Virus record (IMG/VR): IMGVR_UViG_2778261094_000002
Span: 1 to 5,911 of that record
Reading direction: 5' to 3' (one strand)
Source of the DNA: a virus
Lineage: Duplodnaviria; Heunggongvirae; Uroviricota; Caudoviricetes
Length of the DNA: 5,911 nucleotides
In this document: one piece after another, positions 1 to 5,911 of the stretch
Layout of the letters: every line of letters starts with the position of its first letter
Numbering within the stretch: position 1 is the first letter of the stretch
The notes under the pieces: generated by a model
Seen by the model: the letters and a program-made list of their open reading frames with translations, nothing else
What the model was told of the DNA's origin: nothing
Databases searched by the model: none
Program-made: the position numbers and the translations under genes

Positions 1-2051
1 TCCAGATCGATAGTCTTACTAAATTCCGGTCCCATATCTCCGGTTTGCGGATCGAAAAATATTGCACCTATTGAGATGATCGGGGCATCGGGATTTTTTC
101 CCATGGTTTCAAGGTCGATCATTAGATGGTCACACGTCCTGCTGGTGGATGTGATAACGCGATGACCGTTCACCGTAATTAAGGGATCTGCCGTCTCGCC
201 AGTTTCACTATCGCTGGCGTGATCCTGAGCGCTGCCAGCATTCTCCTTGTGTGGATGTTCAGCGCCTTCCATTTTCTCCGAATCGTCTTCCTGAACTTCA
301 ACCTGGTTCTTGTCATCGAATGTTTCCTGGTATGTTGCGTCGCCCATCACCGCACCACAATCAGGGCAGTTGCCACCACCGCTCTGACCGCAGGCGGTGC
401 AGATTTTTTCCGGTTCCTGTTGCACTACTGGTTCAGGTTGTTTCGTTTCTGGCTCGTTTTGTTGCGTATTTGGGCTGTTTTGTTCCGCTTTCTGGTCGTT
501 CTGTTCCGTTTCTTGCTGGTTCTGGTTCACAGTATCGCGGGTCTGGATCCCCTTAACCCATTTCGGATCATTCGGGTCGCTAATCCCTTCAATAAATTCA
601 CCACGTGATGCAGCAAGCAACTTATCGGCGTCAGGCTGGCTGATATTGGCTGCCTGCATAATTTTGTTTACTTCGTCAGCGGTAACTTTTACCGGTTCTG
701 GCTGTGCGGTCGTGTCAGATGCACCAGTATTTTGTTGTGAACCTGAGTATGTACTGTTTTTGTGGGCGAAATATTCTTCTTTCGTGATTTCAGTAGCCCC
801 GGCAGCCAGCGCCTTATCCAGACCAGAAAGTTTGTTTGCGCGACCGTATTTTTCGCCATCCTTGTCGGTGAAGAGGAAGTAGAACGGCCCCTCACGCTCT
901 ACAGATGGTTCGACTTCCACTTTGCATTCGGTTTTTTCGTTGTCCGGAATTGCCGTTTCCACTGCATCAGTTTCTGGTACTGGCGACGAGAGAGTATCAG
1001 TTGCGCTCTGATTTCTTCCTTCATCTTCAAACACGCCCTTTGTAGTCAGGTATTCAGTAATGTATTTGTTCAGTGCCACAGGATCTTTGTGAATGTCGAT
1101 CGGACGTTCACGGACAAGGCCAAAAATAGTCTGGCGGTCGTAGCGAAGGGCATCAGGCTGTTTGCGCATCGATGCCGAGATACGCTTCCAGTCTTCGCGG
1201 TCGTTGTCGATAACTTCATTTTTTGCCCAGCGATGGATGCTGCCGTCAATGTTTCCGGCATCCACATCACCAGGCCAGAGAGCGTAGGCCAGTTCGTCAT
1301 CCAGTGTTTTCCATGTCTGCTTGTATTCGCGATGAGTGGCAGCAATGACCGGGTTGATTTTTCCTGTTGAATTTTCAGTGTTCTGTTGATTGGCTCTGGC
1401 GCGGGCGAGATCAACAGCAGACGTGTATTTTCCGGTTTCCTTGCGTTCACCTTCGCGACGTTTTTTCCAGATGCGCATCTCTGCCTGAATTTCGGGCCAT
1501 TTGGCACCAGGAATACATTTATGCTTAACCCACCCGATGGCATGCAGCTTAAGCTCCGGATACATGGCGTTAACTTCTGGCATTTTCATCAACGCTTCAA
1601 CGATATGTCCGTCGAATGTTGCCATGTCTTCCTGCAACAATTCCTGCGCGCTAATCACCATATCAACGGTGATGTTTTCACATGTACCGAACTTAACCAG
1701 GACCGCGTTCTGTACTTCAAGGGACAGCTTGTCAAAATTGACGATCATCGGATCGGATTCTGGTTCGACCGGGACAAAGGAAGCGCCTTCCTCATCCCAG
1801 CGGTTTTCCAGCATATATTCGGTATCCCAGGAGTCGATGGCAGGGCGGGGCATGCCGGGTTTATCCTCGCAGACAAGAAATTTATAAGCGCAGTCCTGAG
1901 CAGCCGGATATTGCTCCAGGAATTGCCAGGTAAATTTGGCACGGGCGCGACGTTCGTCGCCGGCTTCAATGGCAGTGGCTACAGCGACTGCACCTTCTTC
2001 CTTTATTGCCTGTTCGTCCGGAATGGCGGCGCAAATAAAGACTTTACTCAT
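1..2051 (-). CDS. recE: RecE-like (exonuclease VIII family) large protein, N-terminal 683 codons; the 3' end of the gene lies beyond the left window edge
   Basis: Continuous minus-strand frame from ATG at 2051..2049 to position 1 with no stop. GAGG lies about 11 nt upstream and an in-frame TAA three codons upstream. I checked the frame codon by codon at several points (Cys codons at 399-401, 390-392, 366-368, 357-359; Met codons at 120-122 and 102-104). It is missing from the ORF track, presumably because there is no in-window stop. Translation begins MSKVFICAAIPDEQAIKEEG. Segments ADKLLAASRGEFIEGISDPNDPKWVKGIQTRD and CTACGQSGGGNCPDCGAVMGDATYQETFD match what I recall of the Rac RecE N-terminal region, but this is memory, not an alignment. 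Position upstream of two small genes and the immunity region fits Rac synteny. Confidence 0.6.
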   Translation of the reverse strand, partial: MSKVFICAAIPDEQAIKEEGAVAVATAIEAGDERRARAKFTWQFLEQYPAAQDCAYKFLVCEDKPGMPRPAIDSWDTEYMLENRWDEEGASFVPVEPESDPMIVNFDKLSLEVQNAVLVKFGTCENITVDMVISAQELLQEDMATFDGHIVEALMKMPEVNAMYPELKLHAIGWVKHKCIPGAKWPEIQAEMRIWKKRREGERKETGKYTSAVDLARARANQQNTENSTGKINPVIAATHREYKQTWKTLDDELAYALWPGDVDAGNIDGSIHRWAKNEVIDNDREDWKRISASMRKQPDALRYDRQTIFGLVRERPIDIHKDPVALNKYITEYLTTKGVFEDEGRNQSATDTLSSPVPETDAVETAIPDNEKTECKVEVEPSVEREGPFYFLFTDKDGEKYGRANKLSGLDKALAAGATEITKEEYFAHKNSTYSGSQQNTGASDTTAQPEPVKVTADEVNKIMQAANISQPDADKLLAASRGEFIEGISDPNDPKWVKGIQTRDTVNQNQQETEQNDQKAEQNSPNTQQNEPETKQPEPVVQQEPEKICTACGQSGGGNCPDCGAVMGDATYQETFDDKNQVEVQEDDSEKMEGAEHPHKENAGSAQDHASDSETGETADPLITVNGHRVITSTSRTCDHLMIDLETMGKNPDAPIISIGAIFFDPQTGDMGPEFSKTIDL
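141..148 (+). other. Chi octamer GCTGGTGG (RecBCD recombination hotspot sequence)
   Basis: Exact match to the E. coli Chi sequence on the plus strand, inside the RecE-like ORF. Confidence 0.5.
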
Positions 2052-2131
2052 TTTGTTTTAACCTCATTACAGATTTAAGGGTGAACAAATCCCTGCCATT
2101 GCTGGCATATAAAAATGAAACCGGATATTAA

Positions 2132-2335
2132 TTACGGTGCTGTTTTAAGTCCTGCCGGGATTTCGTTATTATCCATGTGAATAACTTTATCGACCGGATA
2201 ACAGTTACCGGGAATTTTCTGTTCCGCTGCGGCAACCATGCATTCTTTCATTGAGCCGTATACGCCAGTAACCATGTCAACCGGTTCACCGGAAACAAGA
2301 AAAACCGTCAGAACAAGTGCAAATGTAGTATTCAT
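2132..2335 (-). CDS. Small protein with N-terminal hydrophobic segment (signal peptide or membrane anchor), 67 aa, in the position RacC occupies in Rac; a longer alternative start exists at 2389 (85 aa)
   Basis: Minus-strand ORF MNTTFALVLTVFLVSGEPVDMVTGVYGSMKECMVAAAEQKIPGNCYPVDKVIHMDNNEIPAGLKTAP, stop TAA at 2134..2132. ATG at 2335..2333 overlaps the upstream gene's TGA (2334..2332) in an ATGA arrangement, indicating translational coupling. AAGGA lies about 9 nt upstream. The longer ORF from 2389 would overlap the upstream gene by 58 nt and has a poorer RBS spacing. Confidence 0.5.
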   Translation of the reverse strand: MNTTFALVLTVFLVSGEPVDMVTGVYGSMKECMVAAAEQKIPGNCYPVDKVIHMDNNEIPAGLKTAP

Positions 2336-2520
2336 TGCCAGCATCCTTTTTGCATCAGGCGTAAACGGGCCAGCATTGAAACAATGCATATTTTATTTAA
2401 TAGCTCCCGTTCTTGTTTTCTCTTGTTAATGGCATCTTCAGTAAATACTGGGTTACTGATAGTGACACCAATTTCAAAACAACCTTCAGACGTATTAACG
2501 TTTGGTAATAACGTTTCCAT
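2332..2520 (-). CDS. Small Cys-containing protein, 62 aa, in the position YdaE occupies in Rac; the ORF track's longer version starts at 2592
   Basis: Minus-strand ORF METLLPNVNTSEGCFEIGVTISNPVFTEDAINKRKQERELLNKICIVSMLARLRLMQKGCWQ. ATG at 2520..2518 is preceded by GAGGA with 7-nt spacing. Stop TGA overlaps the start of the downstream gene. Confidence 0.45.
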   Translation of the reverse strand: METLLPNVNTSEGCFEIGVTISNPVFTEDAINKRKQERELLNKICIVSMLARLRLMQKGCWQ

Positions 2521-3049
2521 TATCGCGTCCTCAACAATGAATTTTGTGATGCGGCGCCTGGTGCCTCCAGGTGACGTTAACCAGTAAACCATTAACGCCG
2601 GATTGTTAGTTGATGTCTGTTACGCAAGTAAAAGACCGCTTGTTTTAACTGTTCCGCGTGCGCTGAGCCGCATTCACCGCATCACAAAATTCACTTTAAA
2701 AGGGGCGGGTATCACGGGAAAAACAAAACGAATACCCGCCAAAAGGTAATCAACATGGGTTGTTGTAGCGGAGTTGTCACTCAGGCGTATGGTCAACCTG
2801 ACAACCCGGTGTCCTCAACGGGGAAGGAATAACCCCGCCATACTTACCGCCGCGCCATTTCGCGGAGTGCCACAACCGGAAGCGCACGGTCGACGAAAAT
2901 TTAACGACAGGCTATCTATGAACCAGCAACCTCGCCGTGCGCTTTCGCGTTATGCTCTGACTTTTCAGAGAAATATCCTTTCAGTAAACTGTCAGTGCCG
3001 GATGTTCACCCGTGGAGAACTCCTTAATTACCAACCCTCAGGAGGGTGA

Positions 3050-3283
3050 ATGTTAAAATCAACTCTTATTGCTAAATGCCTTTATCAAAATCGCATGGTA
3101 AGCAGCATTTCAATAGGCGAGTCTGCAGTTAAAAGTATTTTCGAAGAGTACTTTTCCGGGCATGATTTTAATAAATGGAATACCAAATTACCGCCAGCAG
3201 TTTCAACGCGTATTCTGAAAGCAACTGAAAGAGCAAGTACAATTCGCGTTAACTATTTCATTAAAGATTTGTGGGATCTTTGA
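3050..3283 (+). CDS. Hypothetical 77-aa protein, AT-rich, lysine-rich; transcribed opposite to the leftward operon
   Basis: ATG at 3050 preceded by AGGAGGG (3040-3046). Translation MLKSTLIAKCLYQNRMVSSISIGESAVKSIFEEYFSGHDFNKWNTKLPPAVSTRILKATERASTIRVNYFIKDLWDL, stop TGA at 3281-3283. Codon usage is AT-biased relative to the flanking genes. No recognisable family. Confidence 0.5.
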   Translation: MLKSTLIAKCLYQNRMVSSISIGESAVKSIFEEYFSGHDFNKWNTKLPPAVSTRILKATERASTIRVNYFIKDLWDL

Positions 3284-3668
3284 TATCCACAGAGCCTAAA
3301 GTATGTGCATATGGATGTGCTATTGTGCGCCCTCGCAGATTTGCATCATTTTCTAAATTCACTGAACGAAACAGGGCATCAACAAGGCTCTGTACAATGC
3401 AAAGGCAATCGAAGACTGTCGCCGTTTCTGTTTTGATTGATGAAAGAACATGGCCATTCACGCAAACAGAAATTACCCGTTTATTAACATCGCTTTCCTG
3501 CTTTTGATTATCAGAACCATATAGCCCAGAAAAAGCATTGCGCACATTACGAACCATATTATCGATGGTTTCTTTTTTGGTGTATGCCGGGTCAATTTTC
3601 ACCAGACTATCACCGAGAGTCGTTGCAGCAATTGTCTGGATTTCTTTTGGTAAATCTTTAAATTCCAT
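3261..3668 (-). CDS. Hypothetical 135-aa protein
   Basis: ATG at 3668..3666 with GAGG 6 nt upstream; stop TAA at 3263..3261. Translation MEFKDLPKEIQTIAATTLGDSLVKIDPAYTKKETIDNMVRNVRNAFSGLYGSDNQKQESDVNKRVISVCVNGHVLSSIKTETATVFDCLCIVQSLVDALFRSVNLENDANLRGRTIAHPYAHTLGSVDIKDPTNL has protein-like composition and no predicted TM segment. No family recognised. Its 3' end overlaps the plus-strand 77-aa ORF by 23 bp. Confidence 0.6.
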   Translation of the reverse strand: MEFKDLPKEIQTIAATTLGDSLVKIDPAYTKKETIDNMVRNVRNAFSGLYGSDNQKQESDVNKRVISVCVNGHVLSSIKTETATVFDCLCIVQSLVDALFRSVNLENDANLRGRTIAHPYAHTLGSVDIKDPTNL

Positions 3669-3690
3669 TATTAGCCTCGTTGGTTAGCTA

Positions 3691-3909
3691 TTAACGTGGG
3701 TATGTAATCATTCTGGCAATGCTTAATGCCGCTGCTTTTTCCAGATTGGTGATATCCTGCTCCAGAGCGGACAGATTTTCAGCCTGCTTAGCCCTGGCTT
3801 CATTGGCCCATTTCAGGTCCTGCGCAGCCTTAATTTTCTGGTGCATCCACTCATAAAGTTCATCATCGGTATAGTCTGGCGCGATGATGACGGGTTCTCG
3901 TTTCTGCAT
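3691..3909 (-). CDS. Hypothetical 72-aa protein, probably helical / coiled-coil-like C-terminus
   Basis: ATG at 3909..3907 preceded by GAGGAA with 5-nt spacing; stop TAA at 3693..3691. Translation MQKREPVIIAPDYTDDELYEWMHQKIKAAQDLKWANEARAKQAENLSALEQDITNLEKAAALSIARMITYPR. Confidence 0.6.
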   Translation of the reverse strand: MQKREPVIIAPDYTDDELYEWMHQKIKAAQDLKWANEARAKQAENLSALEQDITNLEKAAALSIARMITYPR

Positions 3910-3938
3910 ACTGATTCCTCGCGGTGCTGCTTCGCTTA

Positions 3939-4067
3939 TCAGCCGTTAGATTTTGCCGGGCTGGAAAGCGCCTGTTTAAATTCGCTGAAGCTGAGGGCTT
4001 CTTCGCCTTCGGCAAGGCCTTCGAAGTATTCTTCGTAAGCCTTTTCCATGATTGTGTCGAAATCCAT
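3939..4067 (-). CDS. Hypothetical acidic 42-aa protein, too short to appear in the supplied ORF track
   Basis: Found by manual minus-strand translation: ATG at 4067..4065, one nt after the upstream gene's TGA (4071..4069), preceded by AGGTGGG. Translation MDFDTIMEKAYEEYFEGLAEGEEALSFSEFKQALSSPAKSNG, stop TGA at 3941..3939. It fills the gap between two better-supported genes in a third frame. Size resembles the very small Rac proteins YdaF/YdaG, but I cannot assign identity. Confidence 0.4.
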   Translation of the reverse strand: MDFDTIMEKAYEEYFEGLAEGEEALSFSEFKQALSSPAKSNG

Positions 4068-4068
4068 A

Positions 4069-4305
4069 TCACCCACCTGAATCTCTTTCCAGCCAGCGAC
4101 GCGCTCCAGATTCGGTTTTAAACGTTTTGCTTTTGGTATACGTCATTGCGGTGAACGTGCCGTCCTGGTTTGGAAACACGCCGTACACCAGAGATTCGTT
4201 GTTGCCAAGATCGATAGTATCCATGCTGACCTCATTCCCCCTTAACGCCGGGGTAGCGGAACAAAAACCTGCTGCATAGTTATTAAAGTTGAACCCTGCC
4301 GTCAT
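4069..4305 (-). CDS. Hypothetical small protein, first gene of the leftward operon; 78 aa from ATG 4305, or 51 aa from the internal ATG at 4224
   Basis: Both candidate starts have a GAGG 5-9 nt upstream. Translation MTAGFNFNNYAAGFCSATPALRGNEVSMDTIDLGNNESLVYGVFPNQDGTFTAMTYTKSKTFKTESGARRWLERDSGG, stop TGA at 4071..4069. Confidence 0.5.
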   Translation of the reverse strand: MTAGFNFNNYAAGFCSATPALRGNEVSMDTIDLGNNESLVYGVFPNQDGTFTAMTYTKSKTFKTESGARRWLERDSGG

Positions 4306-4401
4306 GTTCTTACGCCTCGGGCTGGCTACTTAACCCCTGACCACTGCCGGGTAACTCGAAGTATTGCCCTGCGTTCTGTGGGGCGGGGTGGGTATGTTGT
4401 T

Positions 4402-4430
4402 ATGGTAACAAGAGTTACCATTGAAGTCAA
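4402..4430 (-). promoter_or_regulatory. PL-like leftward early promoter with embedded operator palindrome (OL)
   Basis: Minus-strand reading: TTGACT (4430..4425), 17-bp spacer, TGT-TACCAT extended -10 (4410..4402). The perfect palindrome GGTAAC-aaga-GTTACC (4404-4419) lies between -35 and -10. Further GTAAC/GTTAC-like half-sites occur at 4351-4355 and 4437-4441. Confidence 0.4.
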
Positions 4431-4462
4431 TATGATGTTACAAAAGGTACGCTTAGGGGTGT

Positions 4463-4487
4463 AAAAAACCCGCAATGAATGCGGGTT
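4463..4487 (-). terminator. Rho-independent terminator of the repressor gene
   Basis: Minus-strand reading, 5 nt after the repressor TAA stop: AACCCGCA-TTCAT-TGCGGGTT followed by TTTT (GC-rich 8-bp stem at 4467-4474 / 4480-4487, 5-nt loop, six consecutive T including the stem end). Confidence 0.65.
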
Positions 4488-4492
4488 CTGAC

Positions 4493-5167
4493 TTAGTCTA
4501 AGTATTGATGTATTTGTGAAACTTTACCTTTAATAGTGTAACCGACATTCAGTTCAATGGGTTTGTAAAGCGGGTTCAGTGACAACAGATAGATGTTTGG
4601 TCCGTCAATCGCAACTTTTTTTAGTGTTACGTTTGGCGTACCCTCCAATTGGATTAAGATTATTTTTCCCACCAGTTCTCTAATGTTACTTGAGCATGGT
4701 GTGATCAGCACGGTAGATCCGTCTGGGATTGTTGGGAGGCCGTTAGAGTTCGTCATCGAATCTCCCTCAACGTGCAATAAAAAAGAGTTTTCAGCGGTTT
4801 TTGTCATGACATCAACCCAATTCTTAATACCAGGAATCTCGGTTACTGGGCAACTCATATCCCAATAACCAGCCTGTTCCCACGTTAAAACGGGCAACCG
4901 GGCGATGTTGTCACTAATGTAAAGGTACTGATTCAGACGCAGATCATCGGCTTTATCGTGATCGTCCTTTCCATAAAGAATCCATTCAGGAGATTTTGAA
5001 AGCAATTTTGACAGCAGATGCAAATTCTCACCGTCAGGTTTTGAAGAGCCATTTTCCCATTTTGTTACGGATACACGAGTTATGCCGATTGCTTTTGCAA
5101 CCTGCTCTTGGGTTAGTCCAACGTCTTTTCGACGATTCCGAATACGTTCGCTGATAGTGTTTTTCAT
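4493..5167 (-). CDS. CI/LexA-like prophage repressor: N-terminal XRE-type HTH plus C-terminal S24 peptidase (autocleavage) domain, 224 aa
   Basis: HTH segment LTQEQVAKAIGITRVSVTKWENG. S24 catalytic motifs GDSM (Ser) and TLKK (Lys). Candidate Ala-Gly cleavage site in the linker (EQAGYW). Stop TAA at 4495..4493. I chose the start at ATG 5167 (MKNTISERIRNRRK...) because the HTH then begins about 17 residues in and 91 bp of intergenic space remains for operators. ATG 5209 (14 residues longer) overlaps a consensus TTGACA. The track's start at 5416 is a TTG that would overlap the divergent cro-like gene. Confidence 0.8.
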   Translation of the reverse strand: MKNTISERIRNRRKDVGLTQEQVAKAIGITRVSVTKWENGSSKPDGENLHLLSKLLSKSPEWILYGKDDHDKADDLRLNQYLYISDNIARLPVLTWEQAGYWDMSCPVTEIPGIKNWVDVMTKTAENSFLLHVEGDSMTNSNGLPTIPDGSTVLITPCSSNIRELVGKIILIQLEGTPNVTLKKVAIDGPNIYLLSLNPLYKPIELNVGYTIKGKVSQIHQYLD

Positions 5168-5202
5168 GTAATCAATGTTACTACCAAGTAATGTCACTAT
5201 GG

Positions 5203-5232
5203 TTGACATTGCGATGTAACTATTGTTACCCT
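5203..5232 (+). promoter_or_regulatory. PR-like rightward early promoter with embedded operator (OR)
   Basis: TTGACA (5203-5208), 18-bp spacer, TGT-TACCCT extended -10 (5224-5232). Inverted repeat GTAAC-tatt-GTTAC (5216-5229) overlaps the -10. Architecture mirrors the PL-like element on the other side of the repressor gene. Additional half-site-like repeats at 5177-5197. Confidence 0.4.
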
Positions 5233-5258
5233 CATGTTCGAAATAACAGGAGAGTTTT

Positions 5259-5474
5259 ATGTTCAAAGATGATGTTCTGCGCCATTTCAAAAAAAAGCGA
5301 CTAGTAGCTGAGGCTCTTGGGATTTCACATGTGGCTGTTGTGCGGTGGAAAGCTGTTATTCCCAAACTTCGCGCAATGGAGCTGGATGAAATTACTAACG
5401 GTGAATTGAAATACAACCCAGAGCTTTACAAGAGGCAGGATAGCACCTCGAACGAAGGAAAGAATGATTCATGA
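5259..5474 (+). CDS. Cro/YdaS-like small HTH regulator, 71 aa, divergent from the repressor
   Basis: ATG 5259 preceded by AGGAGAG (5248-5254). Translation MFKDDVLRHFKKKRLVAEALGISHVAVVRWKAVIPKLRAMELDEITNGELKYNPELYKRQDSTSNEGKNDS shows the Cro/YdaS-type pattern (G-I-S...A-V..W....IP......E.IT.G). Stop TGA 5472-5474 overlaps the next ATG. Confidence 0.7.
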   Translation: MFKDDVLRHFKKKRLVAEALGISHVAVVRWKAVIPKLRAMELDEITNGELKYNPELYKRQDSTSNEGKNDS

Positions 5475-5896
5475 AAATCAAGCATGAGCACATCCGCATG
5501 GCGATGAATGCCTGGGCGCATCCGGACGGCGAAAAAGTACCGACTGCGAAGATTACCAAAGCGTATTTCGAACTGGGTATGACGTTCCCGGAACTGTACG
5601 ACGACAGCCATCCGGAAGCCCTGTCTCGTAATACCCAGAAAATTTTCCGCTGGGTAGAAAAAGACACCCCTGATGCGGTTAAAAAAATTCAGGCGTTGTT
5701 ACCGGCGATCGAAAAAGCAATGCCGCCTCCGCTGGTGGCCCGAATGCGCAGCCACAGTTCGGAATATCACCGGGAGCTTGTCGAGCGACGGGAGCGCCTG
5801 GTGAAAGATATCGATGAGTTTGTTGCGGCAGCGATCGTGTTGTTCGATCAGATGAATCGTGGTGGTCCGGCGGGAAATGCCGTGGTGGCGCATTGA
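5471..5896 (+). CDS. ydaT: YdaT-family protein (Rac prophage YdaT-like; occupies the cII-like position after cro), 141 aa
   Basis: ATG 5471 in an ATGA overlap with the cro-like stop. Translation MKIKHEHIRMAMNAWAHPDGEKVPTAKITKAYFELGMTFPELYDDSHPEALSRNTQKIFRWVEKD... matches my recollection of Rac YdaT in length (about 140 aa) and sequence flavour. Stop TGA 5894-5896. Confidence 0.7.
   Translation: MKIKHEHIRMAMNAWAHPDGEKVPTAKITKAYFELGMTFPELYDDSHPEALSRNTQKIFRWVEKDTPDAVKKIQALLPAIEKAMPPPLVARMRSHSSEYHRELVERRERLVKDIDEFVAAAIVLFDQMNRGGPAGNAVVAH
5731..5738 (+). other. Chi octamer GCTGGTGG
   Basis: Exact match on the plus strand inside the ydaT-like gene, same orientation as the site at 141-148. Confidence 0.5.
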
Positions 5897-5911
5897 TAAC
5901 GTGTTCTGGGG

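Follow-up and report, generated by a model that had tools for sequence, protein, structure and literature searches.

An intact ydfE-type gene of Escherichia coli prophages with a predicted DEDDh 3'-5' exonuclease head in the place of the RecE nuclease

In Escherichia coli K-12, Pfam divides RecE (P15032) into an N-terminal PF06630 domain and a PF12684 (PDDEXK-like) nuclease at residues 615-850, with no DEDD domain. The N-terminal domain has no known function according to a review of RecE, and in recombineering the full-length protein does not behave like its nuclease domain (PMC11611040). The Qin prophage of the same strain carries the pseudogene ydfE (b1577), which is cut at codon 256 by IS2. 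Among phage-related exonucleases of the DEDDh type, DexA of phage T4 is a DNase, and its E. coli homologue EcD (the 'HREX' DexA homologue, HAK9828821.1) is reported by Kang et al. 2025 (PMC12153337) to cut 5-hydroxymethylcytosine (5hmC) DNA as well as genomic DNA of T4 and to shield E. coli against that phage. A further group, TONDO, comprises ISG20-like prophage DEDDh exonucleases with auxiliary domains that are reported to defend against RNA phages, the candidates being shorter than 500 amino acids (aa) (PMC13344964). Here, we analysed a stretch of 5,911 nucleotides (nt) from a virus of the Caudoviricetes (IMG/VR record IMGVR_UViG_2778261094_000002, positions 1 to 5,911; hereafter, the window). 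Its left edge holds the first 683 codons of a gene for an 823-aa protein that joins a YdfE-type N-terminus and a RecE-like middle region to a predicted DEDDh 3'-5' exonuclease head.

The 683-codon open reading frame (ORF) occupies positions 1-2051 of the minus strand, starts with an ATG at 2051-2049 and is still open at the left edge. Its residues 641-683, DHLMIDLETMGKNPDAPIISIGAIFFDPQTGDMGPEFSKTIDL, are encoded by positions 131 down to 3. A preliminary description of the window had read the opening motif of a DEDD exonuclease in positions 1-140; re-translation reproduced the sequence, residue numbering and position of this motif (residues 641-683 at 3-131) and found zero stop codons between it and the RecE-like part upstream, so that both lie in the same frame, as had been claimed. 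The final 57 in-window residues by themselves match positions 1-43 of the 177-position PF16473 profile at E 2.5e-16 (60.3 bits; cut-off, 27), so that the resemblance is not due to chance. Because window positions 1-2400 are 100% identical to several E. coli chromosomes, the off-window rest of the ORF can be read directly. In NZ_AP043633.1 (locus L001, 5580-8051, minus strand), the frame does not stop shortly past the window edge; it continues for 140 codons before the stop, giving a full length of 823 aa. The L001 protein (RefSeq WP_000048566.1, '3'-5' exonuclease') differs from the window part by a single residue, H430R, and was the source of residues 684-823. A match to PHROG 2082 ('exonuclease') spans all of it (1-823 of 823).

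This motif begins what the family profile and the predicted fold both identify as a complete DEDDh (DnaQ-like) 3'-5' exonuclease domain. PF16473 (Rv2179c-like 3'-5' exonuclease) is matched at residues 642-813 over profile positions 2-177 of 177 (E 1.6e-67, 227.1 bits, cut-off 27). The Exo I pair lies in D-L-E-T (D646, window 114-116, and E648, window 108-110, minus strand). Exo II is D746 in W-G-N-G-A-N-F-D, off-window and read from L001, and Exo III, also off-window, is H796-N-A-L-D-D801, an H-x4-D of the 'h' subtype. D646, E648, D746, H796 and D801 are invariant in an alignment of 20 homologues (A1) that reaches down to 55% identity, and they align to D7, E9, D119, H186 and D191 of T4 DexA. 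The DexA paper names D7, D119, H186 and D191 as catalytic; it prints the remaining residue as 'E12', but the DexA sequence has E9 and a glycine at position 12.

Structure prediction agrees with the profile. An AlphaFold2 (AF2) model covering the last 213 aa of a protein with 96% identity averages 80.7 in the predicted local distance difference test (pLDDT), and almost the whole domain exceeds 80. The best Foldseek neighbours of this model were the T4 DexA structures 8KEN and 8KEL (E 2e-10, template modeling score 0.69), followed by a DnaQ domain, RNase T, Orn, REXO2, ERI3 and 3'hExo. Of 179 PDB fold matches at E <= 1e-3, the best 50 were all DEDD exonucleases, pointing to an RNase H-like alpha/beta fold. 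The earlier proposal of a DEDD 3'-5' exonuclease domain is thus borne out by the full PF16473 match, the presence of Exo II and Exo III and the predicted fold. Since Rv2179c was neither among the PDB sequence matches (E up to 10) nor among the best 50 of the 179 fold matches, the relationship to this protein is drawn from the Pfam profile only. The general exonuclease profile PF00929 scored below its cut-off on the 823-aa protein (21.4 bits vs 24). PADLOC reported a weak match to a generic CRISPR-associated DEDDh profile (E 1.9e-5), which does not place the protein in a defence system. A structured RNA was rejected as an explanation of the motif region: an Rfam scan of the window yielded zero matches at gathering thresholds, and a permissive scan of positions 2300-4600 yielded sub-threshold matches only.

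Comparison with K-12 RecE locates the point at which the two proteins part. By BLASTP, the RecE-like stretch is limited to residues ~262-626 (RecE 278-592, 39% identity overall), with identity of 67% between residues 474-625 and RecE 454-591. At the nt level (blastn against Rac), homology to recE is confined to codons 476-625 (recE codons ~456-591, 78% nt identity). RecE homology stops abruptly at the linker/nuclease junction, RecE 591/592, ahead of the PD-(D/E)XK domain. No PF12684 or RecE C-terminal match was found in the 823-aa protein or within 6 kb downstream in seven loci, and the ORF ends ten residues past the DEDDh domain. Because RecE homology ends before the RecE nuclease and PF12684 is missing here, the DEDDh head was swapped in rather than added; it replaces the PD-(D/E)XK nuclease of RecE. 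The preliminary description had left room for a different or an additional nuclease: the former holds, whereas nothing in the ORF or downstream corresponds to the latter. Canonical RecE is without the DEDD segment, so that the known RecE fold does not account for it. The NCBIfam RecE equivalog PRK09709 scored 284.7 bits against a cut-off of 1269, with residues 238-626 covering model positions 261-603 of 877.

The term RecE-like, which had been applied to the ORF as a whole, suits residues ~262-626 but not the first 256, which are of the YdfE type and not PF06630; a PF06630 N-terminal domain was not found by Pfam in the 823-aa protein. Residues 1-256 are 91% identical to the truncated ydfE of K-12, which makes the window gene an intact version of ydfE. 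Precomputed Pfam assignments on P0005, the representative of the 91%-identical cluster, give YdfE_N (PF27430), YdfE_C (PF27432) and the Rv2179c-like domain; the YdfE_N and YdfE_C assignments reach the window protein through this representative rather than by direct scoring. The CxxC-x7-CxxC pattern of a putative zinc ribbon (residues 551-565) is conserved at ~517-532 of K-12 RecE as CNACGQTGGDNCPDC, outside the RecE nuclease domain (564-866, solved structure), and goes unmentioned in the RecE review (PMC11611040). Equivalents of the acidic linker have pLDDT below 50 in the C-terminal AF2 model. Structure searches with the N-terminal 460 aa, which comprise three modules, returned no informative or significant PDB neighbour, in agreement with the review's view of the RecE N-terminus. 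The features of the gene are collected in Table 1.

Table 1. Features of the ydfE-type gene in the window (positions 1-5,911)
Feature	Position	Strand	Basis and remarks
ydfE-type prophage exonuclease gene, first 683 codons + 2 nt of 823 aa	1..2051	-	Translation; runs off left edge
DEDDh domain start, aa 642-683 (Exo I + first beta-hairpin)	3..128	-	Pfam; strands in AF2 model; aa 684-813 off-window
Exo I catalytic pair D646/E648	108..116	-	Alignment A1; DexA D7/E9
Acidic linker, aa 566-626, 17 D/E vs 3 K/R, common to RecE, ends ...ETGETADPLIT	174..356	-	BLASTP, composition
nt homology to Rac recE, codons 476-625	177..626	-	blastn; left (3') end = module junction where heads differ
Putative 4-Cys zinc ribbon, C551-x2-C554...C562-x2-C565, CTACGQSGGGNCPDC	357..401	-	CxxC...CxxC pattern, metal binding inferred from pattern only
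Low-complexity Q/E/N/P-rich spacer, aa 503-549	405..545	-	Sequence; partly gapped in RecE alignment
Third small folded module, aa 388-435, beta-hairpins + helix	747..890	-	AF2 pLDDT >90
Second folded helical module, aa 240-345	1017..1334	-	AF2 pLDDT >90; weak RecE homology (278 onward) starts at aa 262
N-terminal folded module, aa 1-206 (YdfE_N part)	1434..2051	-	AF2 pLDDT >90; 91% to ydfE

In the leftward early operon of a lambdoid E. coli prophage of the Qin/DicB type, this gene comes last, ahead of xis/int. Along the minus strand, a CI-like repressor gene at the operon head, divergent from Cro-like and YdaT-like genes, is followed by DUF1391, ydfB, ydfC, two extra ORFs, a diverged DicF-like region, dicB, DUF1482/ydfD, the gene of the 823-aa protein, a DUF4224 xis-like gene, a tyrosine integrase gene and the host gene yccA. 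A crude consensus search detected no promoter-like site between ydfD and the ORF, where there is a weak hairpin only, within chance expectation. From the lack of a promoter-like site directly upstream, we infer that the gene is transcribed together with the early-left operon when the prophage is induced. In all seven loci with a DEDD head (L001, L007, L009, L010, L011, L012 and L014), xis/int directly follows the gene and tblastn found no RecT within 6 kb; in all three with a PD-(D/E)XK head (L013, Rac and Gifsy-2), RecT lies immediately downstream. The L013 protein carries a YdfE_N scaffold that is 83% identical to ours, but it ends in a PD-(D/E)XK head and is followed by RecT. The annealase partner thus goes with the 5'-3' head and not with the scaffold.

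Copies of the gene are widespread in E. coli. Window positions 1-2400 find a match in 4795 of 5426 complete E. coli genomes, with at least 80% query coverage in 3482, and DNA of the DEDD domain is present in 4064 of the 5426, in up to seven copies and mostly at 95-99% identity. A single protein cluster at 90% identity has 23,183 member sequences, intact ORFs of 823-824 aa occur in thousands of genomes, and our first full-length homologue search was saturated by near-identical E. coli proteins. When one genome per species was scanned, the fusion was seen only in Escherichia and Shigella, plus two contigs from metagenome-assembled genomes (MAGs) labelled otherwise. The MAG loci L012 (labelled Veillonella parvula) and L013 (labelled Proteobacteria bacterium, from soil) are Escherichia-type prophage segments (dicB-ydfD-exonuclease-int and kilR-exonuclease-recT-intR, respectively) with 83-97% protein identity to E. 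coli, and their host labels most likely stem from mis-binning or contamination and do not show a true host range. Among phage records, 17 hold the full-length gene and about 700 more match at less than 60% identity; those sampled from the latter cover the ~180-aa domain only and are mostly stand-alone exonuclease genes. Gene decay is common, as in K-12. The DEDD part is split over reading frames in Escherichia albertii (L011, 7876-8456) and Shigella flexneri (L014, 7858-8438). Several 180-aa database proteins (e.g., P0165) begin precisely at an internal methionine, Met644 of MIDLET; we suspect that they are calls on truncated copies.

We consider it highly probable that the window gene is an intact ydfE and that it encodes a modular chain with a DEDDh 3'-5' head in the place of the RecE nuclease, the activity being the one expected from the family. 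In this protein, a YdfE-type N-terminal scaffold leads into a RecE-type middle region with its putative zinc ribbon and flexible acidic linker, and from there to a head of the Rv2179c/DexA family, the nuclease having been exchanged at the linker/domain junction for one of predicted opposite polarity. By analogy with characterized DEDDh enzymes, this head would remove nucleotides one by one from free 3'-OH ends, releasing mononucleotides through two-metal-ion (Mg2+) catalysis in which D646, E648, D746 and D801 bind the metals and H796 acts as the general base. Of the two possible substrates, DNA is more likely than RNA, since T4 DexA and E. coli EcD, the nearest relatives that have been assayed, are DNases. 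The protein would be expressed with the early-left operon upon prophage induction, and its N-terminal scaffold might serve in targeting or oligomerisation. A role in RecET-type recombination is unlikely, because an enzyme of this polarity would degrade the 3' strand used by annealases and because there is no adjacent annealase gene.

Several points weigh against this interpretation. The DEDDh head is only about 21-23% identical to T4 DexA, and EcD, the closest tested relative, is 37.7% identical over ~180 aa, a figure that depends on our rebuilt EcD sequence. The latter was assembled from the primers given in PMC12153337 and matching IMG/VR contigs (forward primer exact, reverse primer off by one base), and it specifies 189 aa, begins MIDTETLG and has Ala at position 78, as that paper states. 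A literature search gave no enzyme assay or experimental study of any YdfE-type fusion. The timing of expression is read from operon position alone, the promoter scan being the crude consensus search described above. The frameshifted copies of L011 and L014, together with the IS-disrupted K-12 copy, indicate that the gene is dispensable to the host. Finally, the founding member of PF16473, Rv2179c, is described as an exoribonuclease, which makes RNA a possible substrate.

This last point leads to the most serious alternative, which we nevertheless regard as unlikely: the same domain may work as an exoribonuclease like Rv2179c, trimming the 3' ends of operon transcripts, of host RNAs or, in a TONDO-like manner, of RNA-phage genomes. 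The Pfam family is named for Rv2179c, the PGAP label is often '3'-5' exoribonuclease', and the fold neighbours include RNase T, Orn, REXO2, ERI3 and 3'hExo. Prophage DEDDh exonucleases with auxiliary domains have also been reported to act against RNA phages (PMC13344964). However, the best solved matches by both fold and sequence are to T4 DexA, a DNase, and EcD was assayed on DNA. With regard to TONDO, its members were picked as ISG20 homologues of less than 500 aa, and PF00929 reaches the 823-aa protein only below its cut-off (21.4 vs 24).

Defence against superinfection offers a second alternative, to which we assign a rather slim chance. An HREX-like nuclease would selectively destroy incoming phage DNA with modified cytosines and thereby protect the lysogen. 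EcD, which is reported to cut 5hmC DNA and to protect from T4 (PMC12153337), belongs to the same Pfam family as the DEDDh head and has the identity given above; the gene studied here is carried by prophages and occurs very widely in E. coli, and its product has the weak PADLOC DEDDh match. In DexA, W152 is required for 5hmC recognition, loss of D90 is tied to the sparing of host DNA, and Ala78 of EcD is the counterpart of D90 (PMC12153337). The 823-aa protein has Tyr at the W152 position, where EcD has Trp, and Ala at that of D169, although the alignment of this loop is uncertain. An Asp aligns with D90, a tetramer-forming residue of DexA, and a Pro with S87, at ~20% identity, which is too low for a firm call. 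Moreover, EcD is a stand-alone protein of 189 aa and not a fusion. The gene studied here sits far down an operon controlled by a CI-like repressor, and the scan detected no separate promoter for it, so that it should be silent in a stable lysogen. The replacement of the 5hmC-recognition Trp by Tyr and the repressed operon make a constitutive HREX-type defence role less likely.

Two further alternatives can be set aside. That the DEDD domain is additional, with a PD-(D/E)XK 5'-3' nuclease further downstream making a dual-polarity enzyme, has a negligible probability and was rejected, since the ORF ends at residue 823 and no PF12684 or RecE C-terminal match occurs within 6 kb in seven loci. Hardly any weight falls either to the view that the motif arose by chance or is left over from a decayed, functionless pseudogene, an idea prompted by the IS2-cut ydfE of K-12 and the E. 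albertii and S. flexneri copies frameshifted in their DEDD part: the full-profile match at E 1.6e-67, the invariant catalytic residues, the thousands of intact ORFs and the confident fold prediction led us to reject it for the window copy, as far as the window and the genomes identical to it show.

The scaffold also carries other heads in related prophage proteins. The non-DEDD part (residues 1-640, window 132-2051) has 254 relatives among 50%-identity representatives, and we tallied the heads in 50 of these that exceed 480 aa. Seven carry a DEDD head, about 12 a RecE/Gifsy-2-type PD-(D/E)XK head and one is a PF06630-RecT fusion, while about 30 have a head with no Pfam match. The heads without Pfam match were grouped by eye and by PHROG/Pfam matches; clustering merged all of them via the shared middle regions. 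One large subgroup corresponds to PHROG 2489 ('exonuclease', ~700-790 aa) and includes P0249, P0253, P0256, P0272, P0282, P0299, P0303, P0309, P0333, P0339, P0356, P0372, P0373 and P0379; its tail bears the signature K-K-S-L-T-D-A-x-K-K-A-L-S-x-L-G-F. In seven of nine members, this tail gives a sub-threshold match to Rad52_Rad22 at corresponding positions of the Pfam profile; the best reaches E 0.004 and 17.5 bits, with the cut-off at 20.3. Judging from these profile matches, the tail probably forms a Rad52/Sak-like annealase and not a nuclease, and the 'exonuclease' label of PHROG 2489 looks inherited from the shared scaffold. P0245, P0255, P0360, P0364, P0366 and P0376, which are relatives of residues 1-450, have a conserved tail reading ...Y-x-QQLTIAAL-x-GLCANPA..., which falls in PHROG 26058 and has no Pfam match.

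P0242 (901 aa, L007 387-3092) combines the PF06630 N-terminus of RecE with YdfE_C and a DEDDh head, downstream of KilR and ahead of xis/int. Its architecture implies that N-terminal modules and heads are shuffled independently. On a broader and more doubtful view, the RecE/YdfE-type scaffold might be a general-purpose carrier with interchangeable DNA-end-processing heads, of which the DEDDh version, carried by ~75% of E. coli genomes, would do a distinct job rather than mere scavenging. The heads of such a carrier would include the PD-(D/E)XK 5'-3' exonuclease with RecT as a partner, the DEDDh 3'-5' exonuclease with no partner, the probable Rad52-like annealase and RecT itself. The distinct job could be that of an anti-phage or anti-defence nuclease, or 3'-end trimming in prophage DNA metabolism.

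As a gene, the ORF is not new: it is already correctly annotated by RefSeq ('3'-5' exonuclease'), by its Pfam architecture and by PHROG 2082. Some phage and protein records label the fusion or the stand-alone domain 'exodeoxyribonuclease VIII', 'endodeoxyribonuclease' or 'exonuclease VII'. Such labels do not fit a DEDDh 3'-5' exonuclease and seem to go back to the shared RecE-like middle region. Our findings therefore carry little weight for annotation, the older 'exodeoxyribonuclease VIII' labels being the only error worth flagging. They do provide a clean case of genes from the phage recombination region that exchange heads on a common scaffold, and they concern one of the commonest prophage genes in E. 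coli, whose truncated copy in K-12 may explain why it has stayed uncharacterised. Should the DEDDh version turn out to be a nuclease of defence or anti-defence, or the RecE N-terminal region a targeting module, this would bear on prophage-host conflict and on recombineering.

The remainder of the window holds further genes of note and differences from K-12 Qin. The repressor ORF (4493-5416, minus strand) has HTH_3 and Peptidase_S24 domains and specifies a CI/LexA-like repressor that is probably SOS-cleavable. In the RefSeq record of L001, only its C-terminal 139 aa are called, as a 'hypothetical protein', leaving the HTH part uncalled, and in a related metagenome contig it is called as a 212-aa product. 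DicA of K-12 Qin is annotated at only 408 nt (~135 aa) and is not known to carry an S24 domain. Divergent from the repressor gene are a P22_Cro-type gene (5259-5474, plus strand) with a weak YdaS_toxin match and a YdaT_toxin-family gene (5471-5896, plus strand), and this cro/ydaS-ydaT arrangement is as in Rac-type prophages.

Between dicB (2332-2520) and ydfC (3691-3909), the DicF locus of K-12 Qin has diverged (window ~2709-2761, minus strand). Its 5' two-thirds, the base-pairing part, are replaced and shorter by 9 nt; conservation is limited to the CCGCCC-TTTT terminator at its 3' end and the flanks. DicF itself gave no Rfam match here even at E <= 1, and the only Rfam match there is a sub-threshold one to STnc100 at 2543-2691 (29.9 bits vs a cut-off of 47). 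Positions 3037-3670, between ydfC and the DicF region, are an insertion relative to K-12 Qin. It holds two overlapping ORFs on opposite strands (3050-3283, plus, 77 aa; 3261-3668, minus, 135 aa), which are 'hypothetical' in RefSeq and have no Pfam match.

To conclude, the protein can be set against six kinds of described relatives. Rv2179c of Mycobacterium tuberculosis, as the founding member of PF16473, shares the Pfam family of the head but differs as a stand-alone protein, encoded on the chromosome and described as an exoribonuclease. T4 DexA is the best solved-structure match to the DEDDh head by sequence (E ~1e-7) as well as fold and is likewise phage-encoded; it differs in being a stand-alone protein of 227 aa with extra loops. 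EcD has the same Pfam-type domain with all catalytic residues conserved and comes from an enterobacterial mobile element, but it stands alone and keeps the Trp equivalent to DexA W152. Closer in sequence are the stand-alone PF16473 exonucleases of ~180-190 aa, such as gp26 of phage mEp460 and those of Salmonella and Citrobacter prophages, which are 55-75% identical to the C-terminal domain. The mEp460 gene lies near the xis/int end of the early-left region, like the gene of the 823-aa protein; these exonucleases lack the N-terminal scaffold, and several have Trp at the DexA W152 position. With RecE of Rac, the protein shares its place close to xis/int in the early-left operon of a lambdoid prophage, the middle region, the 4-Cys ribbon and the acidic linker, and it differs from RecE (PDB 3H4R for the nuclease domain, ~602-866) in its predicted DEDDh 3'-5' head, its YdfE_N N-terminus and the lack of an adjacent RecT. 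K-12 ydfE, finally, is the same gene in the same dicB-ydfD-ydfE order; the K-12 copy has lost the DEDDh head through IS2 truncation, whereas the window copy is intact as far as the window goes.

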